From a virus (taxonomy: Duplodnaviria > Caudoviricetes), in IMG/VR virus record IMGVR_UViG_3300033145_002956, positions 1-51,355 of that record: 51,355 nt of DNA; one strand, given 5' to 3'. Below are positions 3,018 through 42,863 of this stretch, in pieces. The position numbers were made by a program, and so were the translations under genes. The notes beneath the pieces were generated by a model that saw nothing but the letters and a program-made list of their open reading frames with translations, did not search any database and had not been told where the DNA came from. How positions within the stretch are numbered: the stretch's first letter is position 1; every line of letters starts with the position of its first letter.

Positions 3018-3028
3018 AAGTGATCGTT

Positions 3029-24347: not shown

Positions 24348-24491
24348 ATGGAGAAGTCTACTGAAGAGCTCCTCATCATTGCTGGCGTAGTTTTAATCAT
24401 AGCCTTCCTTATCTATAAGAGTAGCCAGAGGTCTCATCAAACTATAATCGAGCCTACGGAAAAGGGTGGATATGTCATTATTGAGACGTGA
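24348..24491 (+). CDS. Small single-TM protein (47 aa)
   Basis: MEKSTEELLIIAGVVLIIAFLIYK; stop overlaps the next GTG. Confidence 0.6.
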   Translation: MEKSTEELLIIAGVVLIIAFLIYKSSQRSHQTIIEPTEKGGYVIIET

Positions 24492-25150
24492 TCGCTGTGG
24501 AAAGAGAGACAGTAGAAAAAGCAACTGTGTTATTTGGAGGGCTTGTATTACTTGCAGGTCTCTTAAAGGTTCATGCTCAGCCTCCGCCTCCTCAATGTGA
24601 AACTGCATGTGAGATAAGTTGTCAAGCGTGTGAAATCTGTGAGGCTGGAGAGGTTCCATGTGGTACTTGCGAAACTGTGTGTGAAACCACATGCGAAACC
24701 TGTGAATTTGAACTCCCTCCCTGCGAAACTTGTGAGGCTGGAGAAGTCCCGACTCCACCTGTTCCTCCGATTGAAATTGAAATGCCTCCTGCTTCTGTAA
24801 AGAGAGTGTCTAAAATGATTTCATTTAGCAAAACTATAGATGGATCGTATGAAGTGCTTAGGGAAGATACAGCGGGAGCTATAAAAGAACTTCTATTTGC
24901 TTCTCCTTCAGATAATTACAAGATTAAAGTAGTTCTTGACGGCTCTAATGTTTATGATGATACCTTTGCTAATTTGCAGTCTATTTCTTCAGGTTTGAAC
25001 GACCTTGCTGCATACTCCTCAGGAGGAACTTATTACTTGAACATTACTGAGTTGTATTATCTAAAGAGCTGTGTTATTGCTATTGAGACTTATGAGAGTA
25101 TTGCTTTCTCTAAGCTTTATATCAAGTATGAGGTGCATGAATATGCCTGA
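24488..25150 (+). CDS. Membrane-anchored protein with C-E-x-x repeats and a beta domain (paralog of 34899..35375)
   Basis: N-terminal TM, CETACEISCQACEICE..., C-terminal NYKI.V..DG...YDDT domain. Confidence 0.8.
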   Translation: MIAVERETVEKATVLFGGLVLLAGLLKVHAQPPPPQCETACEISCQACEICEAGEVPCGTCETVCETTCETCEFELPPCETCEAGEVPTPPVPPIEIEMPPASVKRVSKMISFSKTIDGSYEVLREDTAGAIKELLFASPSDNYKIKVVLDGSNVYDDTFANLQSISSGLNDLAAYSSGGTYYLNITELYYLKSCVIAIETYESIAFSKLYIKYEVHEYA

Positions 25151-25535
25151 GATGGTAGAGATTTTAGATCAATTAAAAAAATTAAAGGGTATCTCTACGG
25201 GGTCTGCCTCGGTTACTGTAGCTAGTACTGCACCTATTACTGGTACTGTGACTGTTGGGGTGAGTCTCCCCTTGACTGTACTTAGAGTTGGTCAGATCAC
25301 TGTAGGAGCTACAACCTCAAAAGCTCTTACTTCCTCGTGTACTTCTAAAGCTGTAGGTCTTGTTGCTCATTCTGGCAATGCAGGCAAGGTCTACTTTGGG
25401 CATAGTTCTTCAGTGTCAACTTCCAGCGGTTTTGAGTTGTCTGTACCTGTATCTTTATCTATTGATAATGCGAATAAAATTTATGTAATAGCAAGCACTT
25501 CGGGTCAGAAGGTCTGTTGGGTGGTGTTGAGATGA
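25143..25535 (+). CDS. Beta-rich virion protein (paralog of 35368..36046)
   Basis: GQITVGATTSKALTSSCTSK...NANKIYVIA...QKVCW. Confidence 0.75.
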   Translation: MPEMVEILDQLKKLKGISTGSASVTVASTAPITGTVTVGVSLPLTVLRVGQITVGATTSKALTSSCTSKAVGLVAHSGNAGKVYFGHSSSVSTSSGFELSVPVSLSIDNANKIYVIASTSGQKVCWVVLR

Positions 25536-26620
25536 CTGGTGAGATAAAGAAGAGGAATGATCTTTCTTTGCCTGGTCGAAGTAAGTGTCTTATTATGGAT
25601 GATGATTATATTTATTACAGTAAGGAGTCTGGTGGCAGTACAAGTGTGTACTATATTAGCATATTAGACTTCATAGGTGATAATGCTGAGACTCTTGTGG
25701 GCACAAGATCACCTAATACTGGTTATACTTCTATTTATACGATGAAACTCGATAAGTTGGATAATATGGATATTTTAATTGGTAGTATGTTGCAGTATAG
25801 TGATACAGATATAGACGAGCTTTTCTGCTATTGGAAAAATGTTCATACTTCCCCTACTCGACAGGATGGAGTTACTGGTTATTGGGAATATGAAGGGATG
25901 GTTGGATGGACAGGTGCGAATGATTACTGTTATTATATAGGTTCTTCTTCTGCTGGTGATCATGGTGTTGTTCGTGATAGGCGTTATGTGAACACAAGTG
26001 ATTATGCGTCCAAGTCTGGTGGCACTGGTGGTTTTGGTAATTGGCATGATGTAGCATGTAGTAATAGATATATCCATGGTATAGACTTGAGAGTTGGGGG
26101 TGTTGGACCTAGTGGGATCTATGGAATCTATGATGTTACTAAGTGGGATGATGCTTGGGAAGATTTTGAACTTTATTATGCTTCTATTTCTGGAAGATCA
26201 GGTATTATTTATGATAGTGTGAATGATAAATTTATAAGTTGGGGGTATAATAATCGTAGAATCTACATAGCTGATCCTACTTCTTCTAATCCTGATGCAG
26301 TATATTTTGACACTCCTTCTTCTGAGGGAAATGTTACTGATGTGAGATCCTATGGAGGATATCTATATATTGGTACTACTACAAATGGCAAGGTTTTGGT
26401 ATATGATATATCTGGTAATAAGAAAGGGGAGTATGATACGGGTGTTGCATCGCCAATAACAGCGGTTGCTGCAAATGCATCTTATGTTTGTGCAGTTTGT
26501 AGTGGATGGATGTATTTGTGGAAAATAGCAGGCGTTCCAGTTTCGGTTAATATGTCATTCCCTCTTGGTGGTCTTAAGTCTCGTTCGATTATCAGCTTTG
26601 CCAGAGGTGTATCAATATGA
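25532..26620 (+). CDS. Putative beta-propeller receptor-binding protein
   Basis: Y/G/S/D-rich blades (GGYLYIGTTTNGKVLVYDISG; ITAVAANASYVCAV). Confidence 0.6.
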   Translation: MTGEIKKRNDLSLPGRSKCLIMDDDYIYYSKESGGSTSVYYISILDFIGDNAETLVGTRSPNTGYTSIYTMKLDKLDNMDILIGSMLQYSDTDIDELFCYWKNVHTSPTRQDGVTGYWEYEGMVGWTGANDYCYYIGSSSAGDHGVVRDRRYVNTSDYASKSGGTGGFGNWHDVACSNRYIHGIDLRVGGVGPSGIYGIYDVTKWDDAWEDFELYYASISGRSGIIYDSVNDKFISWGYNNRRIYIADPTSSNPDAVYFDTPSSEGNVTDVRSYGGYLYIGTTTNGKVLVYDISGNKKGEYDTGVASPITAVAANASYVCAVCSGWMYLWKIAGVPVSVNMSFPLGGLKSRSIISFARGVSI

Positions 26621-27009
26621 AAAACAAAAAAATTGTTATTGGTCTTGGTGCTCTTGGAATAGGCCTCTACTTACTGAGTAGGGCAAGAGCTTGTCCTACA
26701 GATGTTCCCTGTGGGGTATCTGAAATCTGTGGAGATTGTCAGGCTATTTGTCAGGTAGGTGAGGCTTGCTATACTTGTGATGTTTCCTGCGAGCCTGTTT
26801 CTCAGCAGTGTGGAACTGCTGAGTGCGGGGTAGGTTGTGAGGTTTCTTGTGAGGAGACCTGTGAGCTTCGTTGTGAGGAAGGTTGTATGGTCGATTGCCA
26901 GACTGCATGTCAGGCTCAGTGCGAATGGATGACTGAGCAGTGCAAAATCTGTGAAACTCTTTGTGAAGTTCACTGTCAGGTAGGATGTGAAGTTTCTGTG
27001 GAGGGCTGA
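26617..27009 (+). CDS. Membrane-anchored Cys-x-x-x repeat protein (putative rSAM substrate)
   Basis: MKNKKIVIGLGALGIGLYLL followed by more than 20 Cys, mostly C-[E/Q]-x-x. Confidence 0.85.
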   Translation: MKNKKIVIGLGALGIGLYLLSRARACPTDVPCGVSEICGDCQAICQVGEACYTCDVSCEPVSQQCGTAECGVGCEVSCEETCELRCEEGCMVDCQTACQAQCEWMTEQCKICETLCEVHCQVGCEVSVEG

Positions 27010-27010
27010 A

Positions 27011-30000
27011 ATGGAGAAAAAAAATCTTGCTATCGTTGGAGGTTTAGGTGCATTGGCCGCTTATTTATATTATACTCGTAGACCTTGTGAGCTGTGTGAG
27101 ACCTGTGAGACTTCATGTGAGTTTTCATGTCAGACTTGTGAAATTTCTCAGGATGTTCCTGATCATTGTGGTCGAGATAATCCCGATTGGAAACATGATG
27201 ATCAGATTTATGATGTAACTTCTGTAATGAACTCTCAGGGCTACTCTGGATATTGGGAGTTAGATGTAACTATGCATAATGGACCATCAATCATATCTAT
27301 TTATGGGCCTGAAGAGCCTCCAGAGAGAAGTGATAAAGAAAAGGTACAATCGTGGCTTAGTGGTTTTGACTTGCATAGAGGCTTTTGTTATATTGATAAT
27401 AATTATTACTGGCTTAAATATCCAGCATCTTTGACACATACTCCTTACCCTCCGTGTCTTACTTGTGAAGTCGCCTGTGAGTCTTCATGTATGGAGAGTT
27501 GCGAGGTTCACTGCCAGACAGGTTGTGAGGTCTCCTGTGAGGCTGACTGTGAAACAGCATGTCAGGTTGGATGTGAGATTTCGGTAGAGCCACCGTCTCC
27601 TCCTGAGAAGAGGAAGTTAAGTATCCATGCAGAGGAGGGAGGCACAACTGATCCGTCTCCTGGCACTTACTATCATGATCCTTTGGATGTTGTTAGAGTC
27701 TTGGCAATTCCCAATTCAGGATATATCTTTGATCATTGGTCTCTTGGTGGGTCAAAGTTTTATCCTAATCCTATTGATGTGCTGATGGATGCTGATATTA
27801 ATTTGATAGCTTACTTTAAGGAAGCTCCATCGCCACCTTGTGGTACAGAGGATGTTCCTACACCTCCTCCTCCTGAACCTGGAACTGGGCATGTTTTAGT
27901 TACTTCTTTAGAGGTAGAGAGTGTTCCTGCTACTACAGAGGGAGGATGTAACACTTTACATTATGAAGCTGTGCTGACAAATCCAGGTTCTGAGTCTGCT
28001 ACTCACCATGTGGAGATTTACTTGGAGTATGGCGGTACTTCCTCAAGTATCTACAGTCAGGATGTTACTCTTGAGCCTGCTCAGACTAAATATCTTGCTA
28101 ATAATATCAGAATGTGCCTAAGTGGAACTTTAACCGTAGGTATGTCTGTAACTATTCGGGTAGTTGCAGAAAATGAAAAATCTGCGAGTGTTGTGCTTTA
28201 CCCCGGACCAACTCCTCCTCCTTGTACTACTCAGTGTGAGATCTGTGAAACTCCTTTTGAAATATGTGGTGTTATAGAAACATGTGGAACTTTAGAAACT
28301 TGTCCTACGGATGTTTGTAGAGTATCTTGTGAGATTCCCTCTGAAATTCTTCCTCCTTCAGGAATTGAAGTTTGGGTATTCTCTCAGCCAGAGGAGATTT
28401 GTCCTCCATGTCCTTTAGCTGCTAGGGCTGCTCAGGAGGTTGCTAGTGAGTATAATGTAGGTTTTAAGGATATAGATACCTTTACTGATGAGGGTAGAGT
28501 GTTGGCGGAGCAGTATAATGTTACGAGCACTCCTACTACAGTAGTCTTTGTAGATGGTACAGTAAAATGTAGATGGGAAGGGTATTTTTCCAATCTAAAG
28601 GATGTTCTTAGGGATTGTCTTGATCAGTATGTGTCAATTCCAGGTAGAAAGGTGCTGTTTTATATAGATGGTACTCTTGTGCATCAGGCGCAGGTAAGTT
28701 CTGTTCTCACCGAGTCTGCTTTTGATGAGTGTTACTTTGCACATGGTGGTAAGAGTGGTAATGAGGAGCTGGGTCCTCCTACTTTTGCAGGAGAGAAGTT
28801 TTGTTTTCATGCACATATTGGAGGAGAGTGGGGAGTGACTTATTCTCTCTTTGGATATACTGCTGAATCTGGGACTCATACTGTTACTGCGAAGCTTGTT
28901 GATGAAAATGGTAATGTTTTGGATACATGCTCGAAGACATATTCGATTGAAGCTCCTCCTCCTGAAGAGTGTACAATTGATGATGATGTCTGGAAACATG
29001 GAGATGAAGTCTATGATGTTACAGAAGTCATGAATCGTAATGGTTATGATGGGGAGTGGACTTTGTCAGTCACGATGCGTAATGGTCCGACAGGTATAGA
29101 GCTATTTGGTCCAACTGAGCCGCCTGCAAGGGAAGAGTTAAAGATGATAGCTTCATGGCAGGCGGGATATGATCTTCATAGGGGTTTCTGTCCAAAGGAC
29201 AATAATTATTATTGGTTACATTATCCTGTTGAGCTTACTCAGATTTCTGGCCCTACACCGTCTTCATCGGCTTTGTCTTTTGAGGGTGTTACAATAACTT
29301 CCTCTGGTGGTACTCATCCTTCAGATTTCGATGTTTCTGGGCGTGTTTCTAATCCAAATGCGTTTCCCGTAACTACAACAGTGGAAGCTTGTTATGCAGT
29401 TAAGGGGGGTTCCAATGAGACGGATTGTGATCTACAGACTCTTACTGTTCCTGCTCATGGTTCCTCCTCCTTTAGTATACACCTCCATGTTACGAATTGG
29501 TGCATTCCTCCTTATAAATGTGGTGGCAGTTGTACTGTTACTGTAACGGGAGATAAAATAGGGGATTATGTATCTCGGAAGTTTATGGCAGATGGAAGTG
29601 CCGAGCCTTATGAATATGGTGGAGGAACAGGTGAGCCTCCTGATGTTTGGTGTGAGATGTGTGATGTTTCCTGTGAGGAAACCTGCGAAATTTCTTGTCA
29701 GGCTGATTGCGAAGTTGCTTGCCAGACAGGCTGTGAAATCTCTTGTGAGGAAGAATGTGAATTATCCTGTCAATCTGCTTGTGAGTGGTGCATGATCTCT
29801 TGTGAAAACTGCGAAGGTCGCTGTGAAACAGGTTGTGAGGTTGCTTGCCAGACTTCTTGTGATGTTTCTTGTGAAGATTACTGTGAAAAGGCTTGTCAGG
29901 GAGCATGTGAGTTGGCTTGCGAAGAGAATTGTGAATATGCCTGTCAGGCTTACTGTGAATCTTACTGTCAAATTGGTTGCGAAGTGTCTTGTGAAACGGG

Positions 30001-30223
30001 TTGTATGGTTTCTTGTCAGGCGTCTTGTCAAGTGTCTTGTCAGGCTACCTGTGAAAGGGCTTGTCAAACCACTGCTGAATACTGTGCAACTCATTGTGAA
30101 ACCACCTGTGAGGCTATGTGCATGACGCATTGTGAGTATTGCGAAACCAGTTGCGAGCTTCAGTGTCAGACTATGTGTGAGGTAGGTCATGAAGGAGTGT
30201 GTGTAAATATAGAACCATATTAG
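27011..30223 (+). CDS. Large multidomain surface/virion protein with Cys-x-x-x tracts, InlB-B-repeat-like, Ig-like and thioredoxin domains
   Basis: N-terminal TM; four Cys tracts (about 46 Cys in the last); GTTDPSPGTY...A.PNSGY.FDHW; CPPC...STPT thioredoxin; duplicated ~90-aa domain. Confidence 0.85.
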   Translation: MEKKNLAIVGGLGALAAYLYYTRRPCELCETCETSCEFSCQTCEISQDVPDHCGRDNPDWKHDDQIYDVTSVMNSQGYSGYWELDVTMHNGPSIISIYGPEEPPERSDKEKVQSWLSGFDLHRGFCYIDNNYYWLKYPASLTHTPYPPCLTCEVACESSCMESCEVHCQTGCEVSCEADCETACQVGCEISVEPPSPPEKRKLSIHAEEGGTTDPSPGTYYHDPLDVVRVLAIPNSGYIFDHWSLGGSKFYPNPIDVLMDADINLIAYFKEAPSPPCGTEDVPTPPPPEPGTGHVLVTSLEVESVPATTEGGCNTLHYEAVLTNPGSESATHHVEIYLEYGGTSSSIYSQDVTLEPAQTKYLANNIRMCLSGTLTVGMSVTIRVVAENEKSASVVLYPGPTPPPCTTQCEICETPFEICGVIETCGTLETCPTDVCRVSCEIPSEILPPSGIEVWVFSQPEEICPPCPLAARAAQEVASEYNVGFKDIDTFTDEGRVLAEQYNVTSTPTTVVFVDGTVKCRWEGYFSNLKDVLRDCLDQYVSIPGRKVLFYIDGTLVHQAQVSSVLTESAFDECYFAHGGKSGNEELGPPTFAGEKFCFHAHIGGEWGVTYSLFGYTAESGTHTVTAKLVDENGNVLDTCSKTYSIEAPPPEECTIDDDVWKHGDEVYDVTEVMNRNGYDGEWTLSVTMRNGPTGIELFGPTEPPAREELKMIASWQAGYDLHRGFCPKDNNYYWLHYPVELTQISGPTPSSSALSFEGVTITSSGGTHPSDFDVSGRVSNPNAFPVTTTVEACYAVKGGSNETDCDLQTLTVPAHGSSSFSIHLHVTNWCIPPYKCGGSCTVTVTGDKIGDYVSRKFMADGSAEPYEYGGGTGEPPDVWCEMCDVSCEETCEISCQADCEVACQTGCEISCEEECELSCQSACEWCMISCENCEGRCETGCEVACQTSCDVSCEDYCEKACQGACELACEENCEYACQAYCESYCQIGCEVSCETGCMVSCQASCQVSCQATCERACQTTAEYCATHCETTCEAMCMTHCEYCETSCELQCQTMCEVGHEGVCVNIEPY

Positions 30224-30231
30224 GTGATAAG

Positions 30232-32580
30232 ATGAGTGGAAATATTAAAGATTTAGATATAGAGAAAATGAGAAAAAGTCAAAGGTCTGTAGTAAATTTA
30301 GTTGCGTACACTACTGAAGCCTGTAATTTAGCCTGCGACTACTGTCACGAGAAAGGTACGCCTATCTTGATGGCAGATTGCAGTTGGAAACCTATAGAGT
30401 TGCTTGAGGTAGGGGATAAAGTAATGGGTTTAGTTAAAAAGAAGAGTTCAACTGGAAAAAGTGAAAATTGGACTTTTGCTAAAACAGAGGTGGAGGCTAC
30501 TACTTCGAGAATTTCGGATACTCTTGTACTGTCTACAGACAAGGGTGATTTTATTTGTACTCCTGAACATAAGTGGTTAGAGAGGCATCATGGTTATAAA
30601 GAATGCAAGGATTTTGTTGAAGGGCAGTTTATAAAGTATGTTTCTCCTCCTGTTGTTGTCGAGGAAACAGAGAATTATAAACTTGGATGGCTTGTTGGAA
30701 TTATTCTTGGTGATGGAACTGTCTCTTGGTATGACTATGATTATGGAAAGATTCGTAGATTTAGGTTAGCTGTTAAGGATAAGGAAATCATTGAACGTTT
30801 TAAGAATTATATGTGGGATGTTCCTTTCCATGATTTTATTATGAAAACAAGGACTGGTAATCTCTTTGCTATTAGAACGGACATCATATCTTGTGCGGAG
30901 AAAATAAGAGATTTGAGTCGTTTGTGGATAGATGATTTTGATTTCTATAGAGGTTTCTTAGGAGGAATCTATGATGCTGAAGGGTATACAGATGGTTATT
31001 CTATAAGAATTGCGAATAAAGATTCCTATATCCTTTCAAGAATTAGAGAGTGTCTCTCTAAATTAGATTTTATGTATGTTTATGAACCGGCGGAGACTTC
31101 TACTAGTCGTACTCCTAAAATACGAGTACTTGGAGGTATGGCACAGAATGTAAGGTTTATTGCTTTGGCTAATCCTTCTATTGGTAGGAAACGTCAGGTA
31201 CTTGAGGGTAAGCAAGTGCATGGCAATGCTCAAGTTTTAGGGCTTAGAGAGGGTGAGAAACAGAGGGTGTACAATATTATGACTGGAACGGGTAACTATG
31301 TTGCTGGAGGTCTAGTATCCAAGAACTGTTTTGTTCCTAAAAAGAAGAATCCTAAAAGCATGGATAACAAAACAGGGGAAGCTATGGTTGATTTTCTAAT
31401 AAAAAATTCTGGTGCTGAAAAAAGAGTTTCCATTGCTTTCTTTGGTGGCGAACCCTTACTTAACTTTGGGCTTATAAAACATGTCGTTAATTATGGTAGT
31501 AGAAAGGCAAAGGAAGCTGGGAAAGTTATGAATTTCTCGGCGACTACGAATGGAACGTTATTTGCTCTAAAACCTGAAATACTTAAATATTGGGAAGAAC
31601 ATAAGCTTGGTGTTCTCCTTTCTATAGATGGATGCGAACAAACCCACAACCTTCATAGAAAGACTAAGGATGGAGAAGGTAGCTGGAAATTGGCTATCCA
31701 GTGTATTCCTACACTCAGACGTTATCTTAAAATGTTTACAGTTAGAGTTACATACTTCCCAGATCACTTCGATCTTCTTGAAGATATTATGGCTCTCATG
31801 AAGCTCGGTGCTCCTAATATTGCTGTTGTTCCTGTGGCTGAGGCTGATTTTGATAATCCAGAGACTTGGTCTAAAGTCGAGAAGATGTACTGGGATCTTG
31901 CGAAAGTTTTTGTTTCTCTTGCTCGAAATGATTGTATTCTTCCTCTTTCCTTTGAGAGAAAGATGTTACTTGATATGTGGAGAATCAGGCACGGTGGCTC
32001 TCGTAAAAGAGGTCCCTGTGGAGCTGGTAAGGGAATGCTTGGAATTTCAACTGAAGGAATAGCGTACCCATGTCACAGATTCGTGGCTCAGGATAAGTAT
32101 AGACTTGGAGACGTTTTCAATGGTATTGATCCTGTAAAGAGGGCAGAGTTTTTGCAGATAAATCAGGATAAAATAAAAGGTGATCTTGAAGACTGTGCTA
32201 TGTGTAGAGCCTTTGAAGTCTGTGGTGGCAGTTGCATCGCTAACAATAATGTGTGGTGTGATAGCATGTACCAGAGTGTTGGAGGTCACTGTAAGATTAT
32301 TAGACTGAGATATGATATATGTAATTATATATATAATCTTTTGGTCTATAAAGAAAAGAATTCTGCTTTAATCAATTATCTTACTACTCATAGCAATATG
32401 GGGAGGAGAATGATAGGTGGACAGGGTAAGGGACAGCCTAAACGACCACCATATCCACAAAATATAAATACTCCAAAGACTATAGATGAGTCTATACGTC
32501 TAATAAAAGAGGGGCTCAAGACAGCTCCTCCTGACATAAAGGAGAAATTAAAAAGAGAACTAAATTTGGAGGTTAAATAA
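30232..32580 (+). CDS. Radical SAM/SPASM peptide maturase (anSME/SCIFF-like), intein-containing
   Basis: CNLACDY[intein]C, FFGGEPLLN, TTNGTL, LSIDG...H...R; SPASM CGAG..GI...G..YPCHRF...C..C.....CGGSC...C. Confidence 0.93.
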   Translation: MSGNIKDLDIEKMRKSQRSVVNLVAYTTEACNLACDYCHEKGTPILMADCSWKPIELLEVGDKVMGLVKKKSSTGKSENWTFAKTEVEATTSRISDTLVLSTDKGDFICTPEHKWLERHHGYKECKDFVEGQFIKYVSPPVVVEETENYKLGWLVGIILGDGTVSWYDYDYGKIRRFRLAVKDKEIIERFKNYMWDVPFHDFIMKTRTGNLFAIRTDIISCAEKIRDLSRLWIDDFDFYRGFLGGIYDAEGYTDGYSIRIANKDSYILSRIRECLSKLDFMYVYEPAETSTSRTPKIRVLGGMAQNVRFIALANPSIGRKRQVLEGKQVHGNAQVLGLREGEKQRVYNIMTGTGNYVAGGLVSKNCFVPKKKNPKSMDNKTGEAMVDFLIKNSGAEKRVSIAFFGGEPLLNFGLIKHVVNYGSRKAKEAGKVMNFSATTNGTLFALKPEILKYWEEHKLGVLLSIDGCEQTHNLHRKTKDGEGSWKLAIQCIPTLRRYLKMFTVRVTYFPDHFDLLEDIMALMKLGAPNIAVVPVAEADFDNPETWSKVEKMYWDLAKVFVSLARNDCILPLSFERKMLLDMWRIRHGGSRKRGPCGAGKGMLGISTEGIAYPCHRFVAQDKYRLGDVFNGIDPVKRAEFLQINQDKIKGDLEDCAMCRAFEVCGGSCIANNNVWCDSMYQSVGGHCKIIRLRYDICNYIYNLLVYKEKNSALINYLTTHSNMGRRMIGGQGKGQPKRPPYPQNINTPKTIDESIRLIKEGLKTAPPDIKEKLKRELNLEVK
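30343..31326 (+). mobile_element. Intein with LAGLIDADG homing endonuclease (328 aa)
   Basis: Starts CHEKGTPILMAD; block B CTPEHKWL; LVGIILGDG and FLGGIYDAEG; ends VYNIMTGTGNYVAGGLVSKN before Cys. Confidence 0.93.
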
Positions 32581-32581: not shown

Positions 32582-33010
32582 ATGGTAAATTGTGTAGCGA
32601 ATGACTTCAAAGGTGAAGGCTCGGTAATTTACTACAGTGGAGAAGGTTCAAGTCCTGCTCTTGATTGGTATGCTGAGCAAACTGGTAAAGATTGGCAGCT
32701 TACGGTGGATTATAGACAAGTGCTGGAGTTTCGTTACTATGGTACTTCAGAGCCCCCAGAGAGAGATTTAAGTCTCCAAGTCATGGATTGGCAGGCTGGA
32801 TATATGTGGGGTAGATTTCAGGTGAATCAGTATTGTGAAAAAGATCCCAATGGAGGTTATTATTACTTGGTGAAATATGCGGCAACGCTTGAAGAGGTTA
32901 CTGTTCCTCCTGTTCCTCCTGTTCCTGATGAGATGAAGTACATAATTGCTGCAATATTGATAGGAGGAGTTGCATTGATGGCTTATAACTCTTTAAAGAA
33001 GGAGGTCTGA
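32582..33010 (+). CDS. Membrane-anchored protein with 'EPPER' domain
   Basis: Paralog of the N-terminus of 33014; C-terminal TM. Confidence 0.8.
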   Translation: MVNCVANDFKGEGSVIYYSGEGSSPALDWYAEQTGKDWQLTVDYRQVLEFRYYGTSEPPERDLSLQVMDWQAGYMWGRFQVNQYCEKDPNGGYYYLVKYAATLEEVTVPPVPPVPDEMKYIIAAILIGGVALMAYNSLKKEV

Positions 33011-33013: not shown

Positions 33014-33865
33014 ATGGTGCTGTGGTGCGTTCCTGATGATTTTAAAGGTGTCGGAAAAGCCGATTATTTCTCTGGTAGTGGTAGGAGTGCTTCTTTAGAT
33101 TGGTGGTCTGAGCAAACAGGTAAAGAATTTGAGCTTACGGTAGATTACACTCAGGTCTTGGACATTGTTTATTATGGAACAGATTGTCCTCCAGAGAGAG
33201 ATTTTAGTGATCAGATCAATGATTGGCTCAGCGGTCATATGTGGGGGAGATACCAAGTTAATGACCGATGCGAAAAAGATGAAAATGGAGGGTATTTCTA
33301 CTGGGTTAAATATAAAGCAGAGTTATATGAGCTTGAGCCTACGCCTCCCCGTTTTAGAATGGAGTGTAAGTTGCTTCCCTTAGTGCCGAACGCAATTTAT
33401 AATCTATCTGCTAAAATATCTGAATTTGTATATAATCTACTCCAGAAAGTTACACCTTTGGGCTTTACTATTGAAAATTGCTATGTGGAGAATAGTACTC
33501 TCTATGTAGATTTTAAAGAGGAAGGTAGTCCAATTGGTTGGGCTGTGGTAGCTATTGTAATTGCTGTATGTGCTGCTTTTGGTATTGCAGTTGTCTCTTG
33601 GAAGGGTATTGTAGGTGAGAGAGAGATGACAAAAAGGCAGACTGCTCTCCAAGATTTTTGGGATGCTCGTTATCAAGCTCTTATAGGTGAGGGTGTCGAT
33701 CCTGAAACTGCTGCGAGGCTAGCAACTGATGCATCGGAAGCGGTGAAACAAGAGCAGGAGAAGGAGAATTGGACGAAGTATCTTATGTATGGCGTGCTTG
33801 CCATTGTTGGTATTATAGCTGTGAAATATTTGGTGATTCCAATGCTTGAACATAGAGGTGATTGA
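33014..33865 (+). CDS. Membrane protein with 'EPPER' domain and two TM segments
   Basis: DFKG.G...YSG.G.S..LDW..EQTGK shared with the previous gene. Confidence 0.8.
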   Translation: MVLWCVPDDFKGVGKADYFSGSGRSASLDWWSEQTGKEFELTVDYTQVLDIVYYGTDCPPERDFSDQINDWLSGHMWGRYQVNDRCEKDENGGYFYWVKYKAELYELEPTPPRFRMECKLLPLVPNAIYNLSAKISEFVYNLLQKVTPLGFTIENCYVENSTLYVDFKEEGSPIGWAVVAIVIAVCAAFGIAVVSWKGIVGEREMTKRQTALQDFWDARYQALIGEGVDPETAARLATDASEAVKQEQEKENWTKYLMYGVLAIVGIIAVKYLVIPMLEHRGD

Positions 33866-34418
33866 TTTGGCTGAACTCTATTGGGGAGAAAGAGAAGCAA
33901 AAGTAAATATTGCACAGGAACTCGCTAAGATGGGAATAACGATGACATTTATCTGGTTTGCTGAGTGGCTCTATCGTAGGATTTCATCGCCTGTATCGTC
34001 TGGTATGTCTTGTTCTGTAGCTTCTCAGTTTCCTCTAGATTCGCCTTACAATCATTTAGAACCTGTGGTTGGTGTATCCTCTCTCCAGGATGTAGCTAAT
34101 TATATGTCAACATTAAAGTATCATAGAGATCCTTTCTTCAAAGATTACTATCAACCTGTTCATGTAACTATGGAGAAGGGTACAGGCGATTGTGAAGATA
34201 TGGCTATTGTTGCTGGTAGTCTCGTGCAGTCCTTAGGTATTACACCTTCATTTGCGTATCTTTACAACCCTGATGAGCTAGAGGGACATACTGTGGCATA
34301 TTGTATTTATGATGGCTATTTATGGATTTTCTCTAATAATAAAACTTATGTCCTTGAAGCTGAGAGGGTAAGTAGTCTTGTGGATATTTTTGATTATCAG
34401 TGTGTGGAGGTGCTTTAG
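33858..34418 (+). CDS. Transglutaminase-like cysteine protease-fold protein
   Basis: GTGDCEDMAI (catalytic Cys), EGHTVA (His), WIFSN. Confidence 0.8.
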   Translation: MIDLAELYWGEREAKVNIAQELAKMGITMTFIWFAEWLYRRISSPVSSGMSCSVASQFPLDSPYNHLEPVVGVSSLQDVANYMSTLKYHRDPFFKDYYQPVHVTMEKGTGDCEDMAIVAGSLVQSLGITPSFAYLYNPDELEGHTVAYCIYDGYLWIFSNNKTYVLEAERVSSLVDIFDYQCVEVL

Positions 34419-34898: not shown

Positions 34899-35375
34899 AT
34901 GAGAGATATTGTTATGTTTCGCAGAAGAGACTGGGCTTCATTGATTATACAGGCAGAGTTAACAGGTAAAAAAATAGCTGAAGCTGGGAGTGTTCAGTAT
35001 GAAACTGTTGTTAGGGAAAAGCCAAAAACTACAGAAATTTATGCTCAGAAAGACCTTACTCTTGATAGTAACTCAGTTTTTGTCGATGTCAAAGGATATG
35101 GGAAGGTTCATGAAATATTTTTAATGACAGATAGCCAGAACTACAAAATTTATGTCAATGTTGATGGAAAAGATCTTTATGATGATACTTATTCTCATTT
35201 AAGAGAAATGAGTAGATTCTTAAATGAGATCGGAACGAGAACAAGTGGCTCTTATTATATTCTTTCAATTGTAGATATTCCTTTCTCTACATCTTTATAT
35301 ATTCGTGTTGAACCTTCTGAGTCTATCGTTTTTAAAGAGGTCTCAATAAAGTATGAGGTAGGTAATAGTGTCTAA
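34899..35375 (+). CDS. Beta-rich virion protein (paralog of the C-terminal domain of 24488)
   Basis: NYKIYVNVDGKDLYDDTY...YYILSI...ESIVF....IKYEV. Confidence 0.75.
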   Translation: MRDIVMFRRRDWASLIIQAELTGKKIAEAGSVQYETVVREKPKTTEIYAQKDLTLDSNSVFVDVKGYGKVHEIFLMTDSQNYKIYVNVDGKDLYDDTYSHLREMSRFLNEIGTRTSGSYYILSIVDIPFSTSLYIRVEPSESIVFKEVSIKYEVGNSV

Positions 35376-36046
35376 CGTCAATGATATAAATACAGATGCT
35401 TCTGGAGACATCCAAGTCGATGTTAAAACTATGCCTTCTATTTCTGTAGCTACTGGTGTGGTTAAGGTTTCTAAAATTTTATCTACCTCTCCTGTTACTG
35501 GTACGGTCTCTGTTGGAAATATTAATTTAGATGCTTCCTCCGATGTTCAGGTCGATGTTAAAACTATGCCTACTGTGAATGCTACGGGATATGTCACGGT
35601 CAAAAGTCTCTGTTGGAAATATTAATTTAGATGCTTCCTCTGATGTTCAGGTCGATGTTAAAACTATGCCTACTGTGAATGCTACGGGATATGTCACTGT
35701 AAAGAACTTCCCAGCTACTCAAACTGTAAGTGGTAGTGTGTCTCTAGTGGGAACTTCTCCAGTGGATGCAGATATTCAGCCTTTGTCTTCTATAAAAACA
35801 GGTCAGATTACTGTAGGAGCTACAACCTCAAAAGCTCTTACTTCCTCGTGTACTTCCAAGTGTGTTTCTGTAGAGCCTCATTCTGCAAATACTGGAAAGG
35901 TGTATGTTGGTGGGGATTCTTCGGTGACTACATCTACAGGTTGGGAACTCGTAGCACCTATTTCGTTTGATGTCGATAATGCTAGCAAGATCTATGTCAT
36001 AGCAAACCAAGCAAATCAGAAAGTTTGTTGGGCGGTGTTGGGATGA
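35368..36046 (+). CDS. Repeat-containing virion protein; +1 frameshift near 35605
   Basis: Near-identical repeat with 100-nt period (35506 and 35606); removing one A from the AAAA run joins the two ORFs. Confidence 0.65.
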
Positions 36047-37272
36047 CACGAATAACTCATGGTTTTCATAACGATCATGCTAAACTCAAGCATCTCCTTT
36101 GGTCTGAGGCAGGGCATGTCTTTGACACTGATGTGGATTTCAATTCACAGAAAATCTATTTAGATCAGACAAACCTACCAAACACATATATCTGGGAAGA
36201 TGGTACAAATCCTATCTTCAATTTCGACACTGGAGATCAGCTTGTGTACGATATATCTGCTAATCAGTTTTTATTTAAGATTGGTGGTACTACTGAATTA
36301 TCTTTGAGTTCTACTGAGTTGAATCTTTATACCAACAATATAAGGATAGATGGAGATGCACAAGAGGGACATATTCAGATAGGTGGAGGTTATAGATGGA
36401 TTGGTCTAAAAACGAGGAATAATGGTTATTCATGGGCATTTGGTGATGACGCTAATGAAACTCTCCAGATTTCAAAATATGATCATGGAATCTCTACTTG
36501 GGATTGGGGAGTAATCGCAATAGCTTCGTCTACAGGAAATGTACAGATTAAACATAATTTAAAAGTTTTGGGAAATTTAAATATGGATAATAGAAATATT
36601 GACGATGTTGCCTCTATAGATGGCGGAGGAGATGCTGTTGTTTTTGATGATAATATTCAAATCTTAAGGAATGGTGCAACTTTAATTCTTAAAACATCAA
36701 CACAAGATGGTGCTGACCGCCCACGAATTAAATTCGACAATAACAACCAAGGATATTTTTATGGCGATGATCATGCAAAACAGGTATTCGGGTTTGTATC
36801 AGGATTTTCAGGAACTCGAACGTATGATGCTGAAGTTAGGATACATGGCAAAGCTACAACCAGTTGGGGGAAATATCTTCAATTAACGCATGATGGGGCG
36901 GATGGAATTATAGGAACAGATGCAGGAGACATAAAATTTGATCCTGCTGGGGATATTAATATAAATGACAATCTAATCAAAGACCCAACGTTCGTAAGAG
37001 TCGGTGTATCAGCAAATCATACAACATCAGGAGAAACATTTATTGGTTGTGATTCAAGTGGTGGTTCTTTTACTATCACTCTTGCTACAGCAGATTGTAT
37101 ATCGGGTCGTGTGATAATAATAAAAGATGAGGCAGGGTCAGCAAATACATATCCCATTACAATAGCTACTGAGGGAACAGAAACTATAGATGGTGACAAT
37201 GACATATCCTTAGCTGGAAATTATAGTTCATGCAGACTCTATTCAGATGGTTCAAATTGGCATGCTTTTTAA
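36043..37272 (+). CDS. Fibre/spike-like receptor-binding protein
   Basis: Beta-repeat shaft; C-terminal DSSGGSFTITL...IIIKDEAGSA...ITI....ETIDG...L.SDGSNW domain common at the ends of viral fibres. Confidence 0.7.
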   Translation: MTRITHGFHNDHAKLKHLLWSEAGHVFDTDVDFNSQKIYLDQTNLPNTYIWEDGTNPIFNFDTGDQLVYDISANQFLFKIGGTTELSLSSTELNLYTNNIRIDGDAQEGHIQIGGGYRWIGLKTRNNGYSWAFGDDANETLQISKYDHGISTWDWGVIAIASSTGNVQIKHNLKVLGNLNMDNRNIDDVASIDGGGDAVVFDDNIQILRNGATLILKTSTQDGADRPRIKFDNNNQGYFYGDDHAKQVFGFVSGFSGTRTYDAEVRIHGKATTSWGKYLQLTHDGADGIIGTDAGDIKFDPAGDININDNLIKDPTFVRVGVSANHTTSGETFIGCDSSGGSFTITLATADCISGRVIIIKDEAGSANTYPITIATEGTETIDGDNDISLAGNYSSCRLYSDGSNWHAF

Positions 37273-37954: not shown

Positions 37955-40003
37955 TTATTTACAGCATCCTGTACTCTTTATATTTTTTTTGACTGTATTT
38001 TTGTCTTTCTTTCTCATTTTCATTCTTGCTACTACGTCTTCTATTCTCTTCTTTTCCAGTTCTTGTACTAAATTCATTTTCTCCCACTTTTCATATAATC
38101 CAAGCATTTTTAGAATTATCTTTGGGATGTCTATTATGCTATTGCTCTCTTCTTTGTTGCTTGTGTAGTAGAAGGCGTCTATATAGTGTTGTGTGCTTTT
38201 AAATCCATGATCGCTTGTCATTACTAAATTTTTATAGTCAAAGAAGTCTATTACTTCTTTAACGTAGTTGTCTATGAAATAATATACACTGTAGTCATTT
38301 CTGTGACATAGTACATCTACAATGCTTGTTCCTAAAAAAACAACGTTTGTGGGGTATTTCTTATAGAGATCGAAGAACAGGTGCAGTTTATCCATCTCAA
38401 ATTCTTTAGCTTTTATGAGTTCAACATATCCAGCATTTGGGGGAGGTATAAATTCTGGTTTGTACCATTCTGGAAGCTCTTTCTCAAGCCATTTAGGGTA
38501 GCAGTAATCTTTTCCCGAGGTTGGAAAACCACTAATGATATAGCCATTTATTGGTCTTGGTGGCCATGTAATTGGCATATTAAAAAGCCACTCACTGTAC
38601 GCATCGCCGATAATATCAAAGATTGTTATCGTCTTTATATTTGTAAAATACTGTTCTCCTCGTGTCCATCCTCCGCTTGTTATTCCGTGAATTTTAGGTT
38701 CGACTCCTGTATATATTGTACTCCAACAGTTGTGGACTGCGATGTTGTTTATTGTGTAGGAGTTGTCTTCTGCGACTTCGAGGTTGTATACTTCGCCTTC
38801 GTAATCCTCTTCTTTTATGTCTCTTATTGAGATTTCAAAAGTGTTTCCTTTCCTTGTCCAAAGTTTTTGTTTTACTTCTTCATTGGTTTGAAGAATTACA
38901 TTGCCAAATTCTGCGTTTGCTGAGAGCCTATATGCTTTGTGTGTATTTCTACCTTTGTTAGAAAAGGATGTAATTCCACTGACGACACCTATTTTTAGGA
39001 GCATTCTTTGCACTGTTTGGAGGATAGGCAAACAGATGGAGGTTATATAATAATTGTTTTTTCTTTTGTGTCCATCTCCTTTCCAGTATCCTCTTATTAA
39101 TGCCTTTATTAAGTAAGGAGGCAAATATTCTATTTTAGGGGGTATCTTCTTTATACCTTTTGGGGTATTTCCTTCTTTAAATTGTCTGAGGAAATAGTAA
39201 AGTCCTTTGTGTCGTAGCCTTAGTCTAGCAGCGCCTGTATGAAAATGGATGTCACATTTACCAAAGGTGCTAAGATATTTTTGGTACTGTGAGATTAGTT
39301 CTTCATTCAGTTCGTTGAAAGTGATCCTCACATTGTAATTTCCATCAAAAAAAATGCTTCCATCTGCTAACCACATACCCACAAATTCCCAGAATCTTGC
39401 TTTTTGAAATTCTTCTCTTCTTATTGTCTTCGCTCTATTGTTATATGTGTTTATTTTTTTATAGAATATCTCTGGGTCTATCTCAGGGTATTTTATTGAG
39501 GGTACTACTAATCTATATTCTTTACTTATGTCTTTTGCTTCTATCCATTCTTGTTCTTGCGTTCTTATTGTGATGGGTTGTATTTTATGTTTTCTTTTTT
39601 CGTTGTCATAGTGCCTATACTTCTTTGTGGCTCTAATCGGATGTTCAGGAGTACAGAGTATATCTTCCATGTAGAAAGGAGAAATATGTACAATCTTCCC
39701 TTTGTAAAATCTTTTAAAAACCTTAGTAACTGTTTGGAAGCGCCCTCTGTGTGTTAAAACTTTGTCTCCTTCTTTAATTTCACTTATGTCTTTTTCTCCT
39801 TCTATTGTTGTTACTCTATGTCCTTTTGGAAAGCATGGACCCGAGTGTGGAACAATGTCGTCTGATAAAATGCTTCTGTGTACTCCAAGCTTTCCTTCTT
39901 TGCTAAGCTTTTTAAAGGTCGGATAAGAGTTTAAATATCGTAGAAGGTACAGCCCTGATACGCCATCAATTCCGAGCATTAATAAATCCAACTTTGCTGT
40001 CAT
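37955..40003 (-). CDS. Alkaline phosphatase superfamily (NPP/phosphodiesterase-like) protein, intein-containing
   Basis: LGIDGV, PHSGP[intein]CWSTIYTGVEPKIHGI, N.P.TWPPRPING..ISG, D.LCH, MTSDHGF. Confidence 0.88.
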   Translation of the reverse strand: MTAKLDLLMLGIDGVSGLYLLRYLNSYPTFKKLSKEGKLGVHRSILSDDIVPHSGPCFPKGHRVTTIEGEKDISEIKEGDKVLTHRGRFQTVTKVFKRFYKGKIVHISPFYMEDILCTPEHPIRATKKYRHYDNEKRKHKIQPITIRTQEQEWIEAKDISKEYRLVVPSIKYPEIDPEIFYKKINTYNNRAKTIRREEFQKARFWEFVGMWLADGSIFFDGNYNVRITFNELNEELISQYQKYLSTFGKCDIHFHTGAARLRLRHKGLYYFLRQFKEGNTPKGIKKIPPKIEYLPPYLIKALIRGYWKGDGHKRKNNYYITSICLPILQTVQRMLLKIGVVSGITSFSNKGRNTHKAYRLSANAEFGNVILQTNEEVKQKLWTRKGNTFEISIRDIKEEDYEGEVYNLEVAEDNSYTINNIAVHNCWSTIYTGVEPKIHGITSGGWTRGEQYFTNIKTITIFDIIGDAYSEWLFNMPITWPPRPINGYIISGFPTSGKDYCYPKWLEKELPEWYKPEFIPPPNAGYVELIKAKEFEMDKLHLFFDLYKKYPTNVVFLGTSIVDVLCHRNDYSVYYFIDNYVKEVIDFFDYKNLVMTSDHGFKSTQHYIDAFYYTSNKEESNSIIDIPKIILKMLGLYEKWEKMNLVQELEKKRIEDVVARMKMRKKDKNTVKKNIKSTGCCK
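38729..39835 (-). mobile_element. Intein with LAGLIDADG homing endonuclease (369 aa)
   Basis: Starts CFPKGHRV; CTPEHPI; FVGMWLADG and LIRGYWKGDG; ends VYNLEVAEDNSYTINNIAVHN before Cys. Confidence 0.93.
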
Positions 40004-40075: not shown

Positions 40076-40729
40076 ATGACAGAAAGTAAAACTGAAGATG
40101 GTATGCCTGCTATGAATATTGCTCTTGCGTTGAATACAGGAGGTACTTGTGCTACTAAGACTCTTGAGACTTTCCTTATTAACATTATACGCTTTTTGTC
40201 TAGTAGGCAGGACAAATGTCTTGTGAATTATATATTTGTGGAAGCAGAGTCATCGAATCCTTCTCGGGCTTCTAATATGTTGTGTAAACAGTTGATTGAG
40301 CTTGACTATGACTATGTATTCTTCTTTGATTTGGATATAGTGATGCCTCCAAATTTACTTACTGATCTGATTGAGAACGCTGAGAAAAAAAACTTAGATA
40401 TTGTTTGTGGATGGGCTTATCAAAAGGATTTCCCGCCAAAAACCAATTTATTACTGAGAGAGGAAGGAGGCTATGCAGTAATAACTGAGATTGGAACTAA
40501 AGAGTTGTTTGAGGTAGATGCTACTGGTCCTGCCTGTATGCTTTTAAGGAAGGGTGTAATAGAATCCATTGAGCCTCCCTGGTTCCAAGATTCACAGGGA
40601 AATTTTAAGGAGGGTGATACCTTTGTTGGTCCAGATATAAGACTCTGTGAGAAATTTAAGAAGGCAGGCTATAAGATATGGATTGATCCTAATCTGCGAT
40701 GTGGTCATATAGGTAGGTATGTATTCTAA
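40076..40729 (+). CDS. GT-A fold (GT2-like) glycosyltransferase
   Basis: YVFFFDLD DxD motif, EVDATGPACMLL, D..LCEK...GYKIWIDP...CGHIG. Confidence 0.82.
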   Translation: MTESKTEDGMPAMNIALALNTGGTCATKTLETFLINIIRFLSSRQDKCLVNYIFVEAESSNPSRASNMLCKQLIELDYDYVFFFDLDIVMPPNLLTDLIENAEKKNLDIVCGWAYQKDFPPKTNLLLREEGGYAVITEIGTKELFEVDATGPACMLLRKGVIESIEPPWFQDSQGNFKEGDTFVGPDIRLCEKFKKAGYKIWIDPNLRCGHIGRYVF

Positions 40730-40738
40730 GGTGATTGA

Positions 40739-41442: not shown

Positions 41443-41443
41443 G

Positions 41444-42553: not shown

Positions 42554-42555
42554 AT

Positions 42556-42861: not shown

Positions 42862-42863
42862 TT

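Follow-up and report, generated by a model that had tools for sequence, protein, structure and literature searches.

A viral radical SAM/SPASM enzyme beside cysteine-repeat proteins and its putative role in thioether stapling

The window analyzed here, from an archaeal-type virus, is a complete IMG/VR virus record (IMGVR_UViG_3300033145_002956; Duplodnaviria, Caudoviricetes) of 51,355 nucleotides (nt), in which three genes encode proteins with long cysteine-repeat tracts (p220, p130, and p1070) and an adjacent gene, split by an intein, encodes a radical S-adenosylmethionine (rSAM) enzyme with a SPASM domain. In our favored reading, which we hold to be reasonably probable, the three tract proteins are substrates of this neighboring enzyme and are stapled by thioether bonds. 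Two loci from a metagenome scan, L002 and L003, carry an intein-free rSAM gene (87% and 82% identical to that of the window, respectively) with tract genes directly upstream. The genes in question are the following (aa, amino acids).

24488..25150, plus strand: p220, with an N-terminal hydrophobic segment and 13 Cys; orthologue in L002.
26617..27009, plus strand: p130, with an N-terminal hydrophobic segment, 23 Cys in 130 residues, and the C-terminus ...CEVSVEG.
27011..30223, plus strand: p1070, a giant multi-domain tract protein with an N-terminal hydrophobic segment and 90 Cys.
30232..30342, plus strand: rSAM N-extein, carrying the C-x3-C-x2 part of the SAM-cluster motif.
30343..31326, plus strand: intein of the LAGLIDADG type, 328 aa, starting CHEKGTP, ending ...VSKN, and followed by Cys+1.
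31327..32580, plus strand: rSAM C-extein, 417 aa, with the remaining radical SAM core, the full SPASM signature, and a tail of about 60 aa.

The first-pass annotation of this DNA had described three anchored Cys-tract genes (at 24488, 26617, and 27011), about 46 Cys in the C-terminal tract of p1070, mostly Glu or Gln with some Met and Asp after each Cys, and an rSAM gene 8 nt downstream, and our analysis bears out each of these points. In p1070, 46 Cys fall within the final 200 residues; non-initial tract Cys are followed by E in 44 cases, Q in 20, M in 4, and T and D in one each (n = 70); and the rSAM start codon (ATG, 30232) lies 8 nt past the p1070 stop (30221-30223), p1070 itself beginning one nt past the stop of p130. 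Counting as a run at least three Cys spaced by 3 or 4 residues, p220 contains two C-E-x(2,3) runs of five Cys each (nt 24596-24640 and 24659-24703), p130 contains runs at nt 26728-26751 (3 Cys), 26767-26790 (3), 26824-26922 (9), and 26941-26988 (5), and p1070 at 27086-27139 (6), 27455-27574 (11), 28223-28246 (3), 29651-30064 (36), and 30083-30178 (9), so that 65 of its 90 Cys stand in runs. The Cys periodicity of p1070 cannot be chance: C(i)-C(i+4) pairs number 53 in the protein, whereas 2000 shuffled versions of it averaged 7.4 and never exceeded 17, and they number 39 in the C-terminal tract alone, where shuffling gave 10.6 on average and 22 at most. For comparison, Cys makes up 1.24% of the other plus-strand open reading frames (ORFs) of at least 100 aa in the window. 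Tandem Repeats Finder reported just short, weak 12- and 24-nt arrays; recent DNA slippage was therefore rejected as the origin of the repeats, and the periodicity is maintained at the protein level. No Pfam or NCBIfam family covers the tracts of the three proteins or matches p130, for which the ESM Atlas also gave no usable match.

Comparison with the orthologues revealed which tract positions are kept. The p1070 orthologues measure 805 aa in L002 and at least 1026 aa in L003, and the L002 orthologue of p130, 86% identical, retains every tract Cys. Between the window and L003, tract Cys are conserved at 61 of 62 positions (98%) and the following residue at 49 of 52 (94%, with the changes E to D, E to Q, and M to Q), against 27 of 53 (51%) at +2, 32 of 53 (60%) at +3, and 545 of 793 in the remaining protein. 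Tract length varies by whole-repeat blocks, about 70 residues of the C-terminal tract being absent from L002. This pattern shows selection on Cys and on the E, Q, or M that follows it. E, Q, and M share a gamma-methylene and not a metal-ligand chemistry, and their free exchange at +1 would fit thioethers better than metal ligation.

The enzyme is encoded in a 793-aa frame in which the intein occupies aa 49-376, inserted exactly at the third Cys of the CX3CX2C motif. The element has Cys1 at aa 49, an ...SKN end followed by Cys377, an endonuclease domain, and intein-free alleles; LAGLIDADG_3 (PF14528) scores 34.3 bits against a cut-off of 22.5, Hom_end_hint (PF05203) reaches 25.2 bits, below its cut-off of 32.1, and the penultimate residue is Lys, not the usual His. 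The intein-free homologues P0001 (98% identical), P0002 (87%), and P0003 (83%) read ...ACDY followed directly by CFVPKKK... across the junction and lack precisely the inserted segment, which defines the intein boundaries, and because an allele as close as P0001 is free of it, the intein was apparently gained or lost very recently. In the SAM-cluster motif CNLACDYC, the third Cys is the intein's Cys1 in the precursor and Cys+1 once spliced; formally, the intein's own Cys1 thus completes CX3CX2C in the unspliced precursor. An AlkP-superfamily phosphodiesterase-like gene (37955-40003, minus strand) is interrupted by another intein (Hint plus LAGLIDADG, aa 56-425), between ...PHSGP and CWSTIYTG, so the genome contains two intein-bearing genes.

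The radical SAM domain (PF04055) is recognized at 49.6 bits (cut-off 29.5). For the SPASM domain we looked for seven Cys in the arrangement CX9-15GX4C, gap, CX2CX5CX3C, gap, C, and found CGAGKGMLGISTEGIAYPC at aa 607-625, CAMCRAFEVCGGSC at aa 666-679, and further Cys at 687, 698, and 708, that is, a C-extein spacing of CX17C with GX4C, CX2CX5CX3C, and downstream Cys. PF13186 gave no match to the window rSAM at E <= 0.01; it is precomputed for some distant homologues, and not for P0001-P0003. The spliced enzyme would have about 30 residues ahead of the cluster motif, which begins at aa 32 in P0001 versus aa 105-110 in PapB-type proteins, and in the alignment with its best match in the Protein Data Bank (PDB), the thioether synthase CteB (5WGG, E 5e-39), query residue 18 is matched to residue 92 of CteB, leaving CteB residues 1-91 without a counterpart. 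Because of this short N-terminus and late alignment start, we conclude that the viral enzyme carries no recognition element (RRE) of the kind used by maturases of ribosomally synthesized peptides with post-translational modifications (RiPPs). Among P0001-P0003, the roughly 60-residue C-terminal tail is conserved.

Scored against NCBIfam, P0001 gave 281 bits with PapB, 223 with QhpD, 208 with nif11, 197 with SCIFF, 170 with not_ScfB, 153 with CcpM, 126 with CXXX-repeat, 104 with HxsB, and 102 with anSME. All of the family cut-offs examined lie higher. PapB (NF047865) calls for at least 340 bits, which the precursor (263.4), P0001 (281.0), and P0002 (287.2) miss and the positive control L005 (434.2) exceeds; SCIFF (TIGR03974) calls for at least 425 bits and a six-Cys peptide, against 197 bits and no SCIFF peptide adjoining; QhpD (TIGR03906) for at least 453, against 222.6; the CXXX-repeat maturase (TIGR04115) for at least 350, against 126.1; the CrpC family (TIGR04463) for at least 525, against 63.8 for the precursor, in its N-terminal half only; and anSME (TIGR03942) for at least 349 and a sulfatase target with C/S-x-P-x-R, against 84-102 bits. 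Nor is the layout that of a classical ranthipeptide system, with an RRE on the maturase and a leader on a short precursor, as the putative substrates span 130-1070 aa. By these scores, the viral enzyme is a predicted relative of the Cys-thioether maturases and a member of none of the curated families. The first-pass label of an "anSME/SCIFF-like" rSAM-SPASM enzyme was thus right about the SPASM architecture, while PapB-like and RRE-less describes it better, outside all curated cut-offs and outside the SCIFF clade.

The latter placement comes from a tree of 100 rSAM/SPASM proteins (fragments P0006, P0043, and P0050 omitted), in which the three viral rSAM sequences form one clade (SH-aLRT 100) that joins RRE-less proteins of metagenomes and of an uncultured archaeon (L004, P0004/5, P0009, and P0010/15) at a weaker support of 88. 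A separate 60-row clade (95) contains the PapB clade (100) and the SCIFF clade (100), and a second tree of 58 hand-picked rows (L149 dropped as too short) agrees. In addition, we compared the active-site cavity with published residue sets. The "catalytic proximity" residues given for CteB are F112, F152, T186, S210, H363, and Q364, and those of the sactisynthase StsB are Y, T, I, S, K, and L (PMC10288494). Mapped by hand from the HMMER alignment, under an assumed offset of +3 between PDB chain and paper numbering (the Phe after the motif being chain residue 115), the viral enzyme would have F, F, T, S, H, and R, a provisional agreement at five of six residues with CteB and at one of six with StsB.

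These data bear on an alternative that we regard as unlikely, in which the rSAM enzyme does act on the tracts and yields sactionines, C-C or C-O cross-links, epimerization, or Cys oxidation. Such an outcome would be in keeping with the unmatched equivalog cut-offs, with the position of the enzyme in an uncharacterized RRE-less clade outside the PapB and SCIFF clades, and with the many chemistries that similar SPASM enzymes perform, judging by the names of the matched families. Against it, the four top models all describe Cys-thioether maturases, sactisynthase models score far lower (RumMC, 77-91 bits), the cavity, as mapped by hand, would resemble CteB rather than StsB, and the conserved partners of Cys are E, Q, M, and D, as among the acceptors of PapB, QhpD, and CrpC.

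Whether enzyme and tracts belong together was addressed at the level of gene order. The plus strand carries nearly all genes of the window, and the block of interest runs p220, p154, p367, p130, p1070, rSAM, p142, p283, and a transglutaminase-core gene, the last three being as follows.

32582..33010, plus strand: p142, a domain X with a C-terminal hydrophobic anchor, located 3' of the rSAM gene in L002 and L003 too.
33014..33865, plus strand: p283, a domain X with membrane segments.
33846..34418, plus strand: transglutaminase-core (cysteine-protease fold) protein, PF01841 at 24.6 bits (cut-off 23), with orthologues in L002 and L003.

In both L002 and L003 the order giant tract protein, rSAM, p142-like, and transglutaminase-like is kept; p220-like and p130-like genes are present in L002 only, L003 being cut at its 5' end. 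The first-pass annotation had reasoned that related viruses keeping the tracts and not the rSAM gene would speak against a link; in both related contigs, L002 and L003, tract genes and rSAM occur together. Because these two loci are close kin, synteny alone is weak evidence. The annotation had also noted no RRE and no peptidase-transporter: there is indeed no RRE and, among the ORFs scanned, no transporter, whereas the transglutaminase-core gene two genes downstream is a possible peptidase. Its product has a Cys motif GDCED and a His motif GHT, and it could be a candidate processing peptidase or isopeptide cross-linker for the same tract proteins.

The pairing recurs in independent viral contigs. 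When IMG/VR was searched with aligned homologues that lack an RRE, 190 rSAM/SPASM stretches were confirmed among 222 candidates, and the best 80 (L087-L166) were examined for Cys-rich ORFs within 2 kb of the rSAM gene (proximal) and in the larger distal flanks (304 kb versus 502 kb). Under a strict filter (a minimum of 8 Cys and of 7% Cys, and one spacing of 2-6 that makes up at least 40% of gaps and is seen at least 6 times), 15 of the 80 loci had periodic Cys-rich ORFs proximally, 18 in number and all on the rSAM strand, against 2 of 80 in the distal flanks; the co-occurrence of rSAM and Cxxx genes for which the first-pass annotation had suggested a test is thus found. A lax filter (any 32-residue stretch with at least 7 Cys) returned 51 of 80 loci on the same strand and 16 of 80 on the opposite strand proximally, and 25 and 15 of 80, respectively, distally. 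Such rSAM-tract gene pairs are common in viral contigs. Their repeat periods differ, with periods of 2 (CTCTCT, CNCNYC), 3, and 4. The tract protein of L099 has 368 aa, 38 Cys, and period 4, with Q18, E11, M3, D1, and L1 at +1; further period-4 loci include L150/L152, L127/128, L163/164, L104, and others, and over eleven period-4 proteins the +1 residue is Q in 64, E in 51, and D in 36 of 224 cases. In L099 and L150 the gene of an RRE-less rSAM (CX3CX2C at aa 24 and 15, respectively) lies between a collagen-like G-x-x repeat gene and the tract protein, genes near the pair match the phrog "internal virion protein" (E 2e-29 in L099, E 5e-17 in L150), and a further nearby gene of L150 matches the phrog "tail protein" (E 3e-52).

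PapB was the best model for all eight such viral rSAMs scanned (129-281 bits). In nine of ten rSAMs with Cys-rich neighbors that were checked, CX3CX2C stands at aa 12-29, leaving no room for an RRE; in the tenth, L087, it stands at aa 60. Eight viral Cys-tract proteins, searched against Pfam and PHROGs, matched no family of known function, returning unknown-function PHROGs and one sub-threshold YmaF match, and the L099 tract protein had no match among GenBank phages. At L102, L103, L135, and L156, about 360 residues of rSAM match are spread over about 2 kb, and no SPASM motif is present in the ORF that contains the cluster motif; an intein, an intron, or a frameshift may interrupt these genes as well. 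In cellular genomes (best 80 species-representative loci), at least 53 loci are ordinary SCIFF systems and six more are five-Cys variants; in L062, L068, and L044 the rSAM gene lies beside Cys-rich proteins of 185-251 aa, with twin-arginine-like signals in L062 and L068. The closest cellular match, at 34% identity, is L004, from the metagenome-assembled genome of an uncultured archaeon. Its positions 1-8800 contain four rSAM/SPASM genes, a 748-aa YcaO-like and a methyltransferase-like gene (both by eye), and, at the contig start, a contig-cut ORF of C-H-[S/A]-S repeats.

The ends of the runs offer a hint at the register of the putative links. We compared 28 runs in 12 proteins (three from the window, P0203, and eight from independent viral loci, one protein per locus, with the L002/L003 orthologues excluded). 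After the last Cys of a run, E, Q, or D stands at +5 in 15 of 28 and at +4 in 9 of 28 (background 0.171; binomial P 1.2e-5 for +5), as in CEVSVEG, CEISVEPP, CEISQD, CEVGHEG, CQSTGQT, CESAAQN, CQYKSET, and CESGFET, and no enrichment of acceptors was found at -1 to -9 before the first Cys of the same runs. Directly after the run-initial Cys, a non-acceptor stands in 4 of 16 cases, against 0 of 70 for later Cys (Fisher P 9e-4). A tract would thus start with a "donor-only" Cys and end with an extra "acceptor-only" half repeat, and this pattern of run ends points to a register from Cys(i) to residue i+4 or i+5, while neither links from i to i+1, nor links to residues upstream, nor metal binding would be expected to produce it.

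Taken together, the following mechanism can be proposed. Splicing of the intein would make Cys+1 the third Cys of CX3CX2C and release an RRE-less enzyme of about 455 aa with three [4Fe-4S] clusters. Its 5'-deoxyadenosyl radicals would abstract a side-chain hydrogen from the acceptor residue, and the acceptor carbon would be joined to a Cys sulfur in a non-alpha, ranthionine-type thioether, repeat by repeat along the C-[E/Q/M/D]-x-x tracts, in our preferred register from Cys(i) to the E, Q, M, or D after the next Cys (i+4 or i+5). The result would be a series of small rings that overlap one another, about 95 links at most (65 in p1070, 20 in p130, and 10 in p220), making stiff, reduction-proof rods or stalks of proteins in an adsorption or surface module. 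Recognition without an RRE might proceed by reading the repeat itself or by docking on a folded domain. The pairing of enzyme and substrates, the thioether chemistry, its register, the attacked carbon (gamma included), and the location in the virion are all matters that we infer. The first-pass proposal of thioether stapling is favored by enzyme kinship (PapB ahead of QhpD, nif11, and SCIFF), selection, and co-occurrence, with the chemistry itself still a prediction.

Several characterized systems resemble the viral one in part. One is CrpC/CrpA of Methanococcus voltae, in which a three-[4Fe-4S] rSAM/SPASM enzyme of the archaeal world installs ranthionines on a large, repeat-bearing, Cys-rich neighbor, the 28.8-kDa CrpA, at CAGM, CAVD, PCAGD, and CPLV(L) motifs, so that its acceptors include M and D (PMC13692751). 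CrpC has an RRE and uses a conserved 47-residue N-terminus, of which the viral system has neither; the enzyme is a member of TIGR04463 (64 bits for the viral enzyme against the cut-off of 525), the CrpA repeat is 17 residues long versus 4 in the viral tracts, the system is cellular and not viral, and its target weighs 28.8 kDa, whereas p1070 spans 1070 aa with 65 Cys in runs. Relatives may be among the entries in Supplemental Data set 1 of the same paper, on RS-associated Cys-rich proteins "in bacteria, archaea, and eukaryota". The best curated model, PapB (freyrasin, NF047865), joins Cys to the beta carbon of Asp or the gamma carbon of Glu and works on C-Xn-D for n = 0-6 (PMC9413430); the donor lies N-terminal to the acceptor, the motifs are repeated, and ring size is tolerant. 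Unlike PapB, the viral enzyme is RRE-less and stands outside the PapB clade, at 281 bits versus 434 for the true PapB-type L005 (Paenibacillus), where the C-x3-D motif occurs in a 51-residue ORF followed by an ABC-transporter-like gene.

CteB/CteA of the SCIFF family (5WGG/5WHY; TIGR03974) provides the nearest solved structure, with five of six cavity residues apparently shared by hand mapping, and the SCIFF core CGECQTSCQSACKTSC has the same period-4 C-Q-x-x rhythm as the viral tracts; CteB differs in its N-terminal domain of about 90 aa, missing from the viral enzyme, and SCIFF peptides are bacterial with about six Cys. QhpD, too, forms methylene thioethers, from Cys to Glu or Asp, in a protein subunit, QhpC, that ends outside the cytoplasm (PMC8172795), with three links and not dozens, within an enzyme-cofactor maturation pathway that has its own protease and exporter. 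The curated bacterial CXXX-repeat system (TIGR04115), judged by its NCBIfam family name, likewise couples an rSAM maturase to targets with every fourth residue Cys; the tract proteins did not match the NCBIfam models for CXXX-repeat targets at E <= 0.1. Among viruses, the Erwinia jumbo phage vB_EamM_Caitlin (L084; NC_031120) has rSAM/SPASM enzymes gp171/gp172 with same-strand Cxxx ORFs upstream and PapB as best model (129.5 bits), whereas its enzyme is 25.8% identical to that of the window and its targets are leader-plus-core proteins of 81-154 aa (stop-to-stop frames) with C-[S/T/G]-x-x repeats. At 1104-2151 of that locus, three same-strand ORFs with leader-like N-termini and 21, 20, and 5 Cys precede gp172 and gp171; the record leaves some of these Cxxx ORFs without annotation and places gp176 on the opposite strand. 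In open PMC and bioRxiv texts, no paper on radical-SAM thioether cross-linking of virus proteins was found.

Apart from its tracts, p1070 carries an InlB B-repeat (aa 211-280 of the 1078-aa frame that starts from GTG at 26987) and a thioredoxin-like CPPC segment (aa ~464-544 of the same frame, ~28376-28618 in the window; all model scores below cut-off), which reads WCGGC in L003 and is absent from the L002 orthologue. This domain may keep thiols reduced until stapling, or may mark disulfide chemistry. In addition, a domain of about 95 aa with two invariant Cys and a W..G....R motif, matched by no Pfam family and termed domain X, occurs twice in p1070 (27152-27445 and 28967-29242) and once each in p142 (32582-32899) and p283 (33014-33337). 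Among 1.84 billion proteins, domain X had 101 representatives at E <= 1e-3; since Cxxx tracts occur in 3 of the 101 (two of which, from their length and number of Cys, seem to be the L002/L003 orthologues), the domain is not tied to tracts, and its use as a tract marker was rejected. Six representatives that were examined are Cys-rich, several with a signal peptide or C-terminal anchor. IMG/VR searches with the C-extein, the domain-X alignment, p367, and P0203 confirmed no relatives, although records of the window's own or a near-identical genome may be excluded.

By eye, the N-termini of the tract proteins resemble Sec signal peptides or anchors (ARA/C; VHA/Q, a signal-peptidase-like site in p220; and a lipobox-like VVAC in L002). 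Since domain X occurs both without a signal peptide, with a C-terminal anchor only (p142, P0237, P0261), and with one (P0270), it does not settle the location of the tracts. Speculatively, a membrane assembled within the cytoplasm would reconcile the N-terminal signals with these topologies. If the tracts are exported, modification would have to precede export, as it does with QhpC and sulfatases.

These features also bear on the improbable case that the tracts are metal-binding, Fe-S-binding, or disulfide ladders that need no enzyme, the rSAM protein acting on a glycan, a cofactor, or the AlkP-like protein and lying where it does by coincidence. Cys and Glu are good metal ligands, p1070 has its thioredoxin-like CPPC domain, and the N-termini resemble export signals. 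Cys pairs at i and i+4 make helix-helix disulfides in twin-CX3C proteins. Moreover, CrpA has been linked by its authors to pyrite growth and possible metal binding (PMC13692751). Nevertheless, Q and M replace E freely at +1, unlike in carboxylate ligation, the pairing of tracts with rSAM genes recurs in unrelated viral contigs with different repeat periods, and, on geometric grounds, period 4 could not hold one face of an alpha-helix across 36 repeats. As to other targets, the glycosylation genes lie 8 kb off in a block of their own, and a C/S-x-P-x-R motif is missing from the AlkP-like protein, which speaks against the possibility, raised in the first-pass annotation, that the enzyme acts on this protein instead. 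An anSME-type role there was rejected, given the missing motif (by eye) and a PF01663 assignment to phosphodiesterases and not sulfatases. Far less credible still is a scheme in which p130 alone is a RiPP-like precursor, released as a peptide against a host or competitor, with the big proteins merely sharing the repeat: p130 does have the size and layout for it (an N-terminal segment, then a Cys-rich core), a gene with a transglutaminase core (protease fold) is nearby, and Erwinia jumbo phages have small leader-plus-Cxxx ORFs before two rSAM genes, while positional conservation is equally strong in p1070, independent viral tract proteins measure 194-972 aa with extra domains, and no transporter appears among the ORFs scanned.

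With regard to the virus itself, the first and last 48 nt of the window are identical, which indicates a circular or terminally redundant genome. Downstream of the block lies a second flanking cassette, recognized by a paralogy search and phrog_20556.

34899..37272, plus strand: p158, p155, and p415.

p158 and p155 are paralogous to the p220 C-terminal domain and to p154, respectively (E 1e-20 and 1e-42). A two-gene cassette is thus duplicated around the tract/rSAM block (24488-25535 and 34899-36046), and only the upstream copy of its first gene has gained a signal-like N-terminus and Cys tracts. In p415, the last 90 aa are similar to baseplate proteins from tailed viruses of haloarchaea (phrog_20556, E 1.8e-13), with 39-44% identity to those of HCTV-2, HHTV-2, HVTV-1, and others among the matches listed; besides the analogy to L099 and L150, this C-terminus is the only structural link in the window. 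Small proteins at 21-24 kb and 34-36 kb had no match in the Pfam and PHROGs scans. Replication genes are present (ligase, ParA-like, RNase H-fold exonuclease, primase, and a weak MCM-like P-loop protein), and glycosylation genes and a C5 methylase are also encoded. A sugar-modification block at 40076-44923 comprises a GT2 glycosyltransferase, a hexapeptide acyltransferase, a DegT aminotransferase, and two NAD epimerase/dehydratases; 72-82% identical copies of the DegT gene occur on three other small contigs. Its named matches (50-53% identity) are mostly archaeal (Archaeoglobus, Hodarchaeota, Methanofastidiosia, Woesearchaeota, Nitrosopumilus) and some bacterial, and no host can be named from them. 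No tRNA genes were found in the window. A 504-aa protein at 12863-14377 matches the archaeal S-layer outer-domain family PF05124 (E 2.5e-22), which hints at an archaeal host and at mimicry or reuse of its envelope proteins.

Several points weigh against thioether stapling as we propose it. The register argument is one of sequence logic, and the SCIFF precedent is itself disputed, according to a review, between Cys32-Thr37 in vitro and Thr34 on co-expression. The enzyme reaches no curated family cut-off (PapB 281 < 340), and neither an RRE nor an evident leader is there to account for substrate recognition. The thioredoxin-like CPPC/WCGGC domain and the invariant Cys of domain X point to thiol-disulfide chemistry, and, because the N-terminal segments look like Sec signals or anchors, export might separate the tracts from an oxygen-sensitive enzyme that stays in the cytoplasm. 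Being close kin (82-98%), the relatives with conserved gene order are not independent; under the lax filter the association is weaker with a much higher background, and many of the 51 proximal loci are near-duplicates, 13 of them representing one locus type (L104-L115, L117). Finally, no capsid, portal, or terminase gene was recognized among the ORFs tested with Pfam and PHROGs, and the tract proteins are at most candidate virion components.

Thioethers made by rSAM/SPASM enzymes on a large Cys-rich protein are already known from QhpD/QhpC and, since September 2026, from CrpC/CrpA. What sets the window apart is the viral genome, an RRE-less enzyme outside the curated families, an intein in its cluster motif, and membrane-anchored multi-domain putative substrates that reach 1070 aa and 65 Cys in runs, encoded in a module that seems to serve adsorption; that such pairs are frequent in viral contigs is a further difference. 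More broadly, we advance, with slightly less conviction than doubt, the joint proposal of a broad class, undescribed in the open PMC and bioRxiv texts searched, in which viruses of archaea and bacteria carry RRE-less, PapB-like rSAM/SPASM enzymes in virion, tail-fiber, or adsorption modules, which would turn C-[D/E/Q/M]-x(0-2) tracts of large structural proteins into thioether ladders, an enzymatic and reduction-proof replacement for disulfides put in place in the cytoplasm ahead of assembly. Within this class the window would be the most extreme case found, with 65 run Cys in p1070 and an enzyme gated by a cluster-motif intein.

If this holds true, viruses would use RiPP-type radical chemistry for materials and not for antibiotics, building long protein rods stiffened and stabilized by dozens of irreversible sulfur-carbon staples. 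Very few thioether cross-links are known at the protein level (QHNDH, CrpA), and a whole set from viruses would be added to them; the presence of rSAM/SPASM genes within phage structural modules would be explained. C-[DEQM] repeats beside an RRE-less SPASM enzyme would then serve as a search rule for more cases, and leaderless, RRE-less maturases might be put to use in protein engineering to staple arbitrary repeat proteins.

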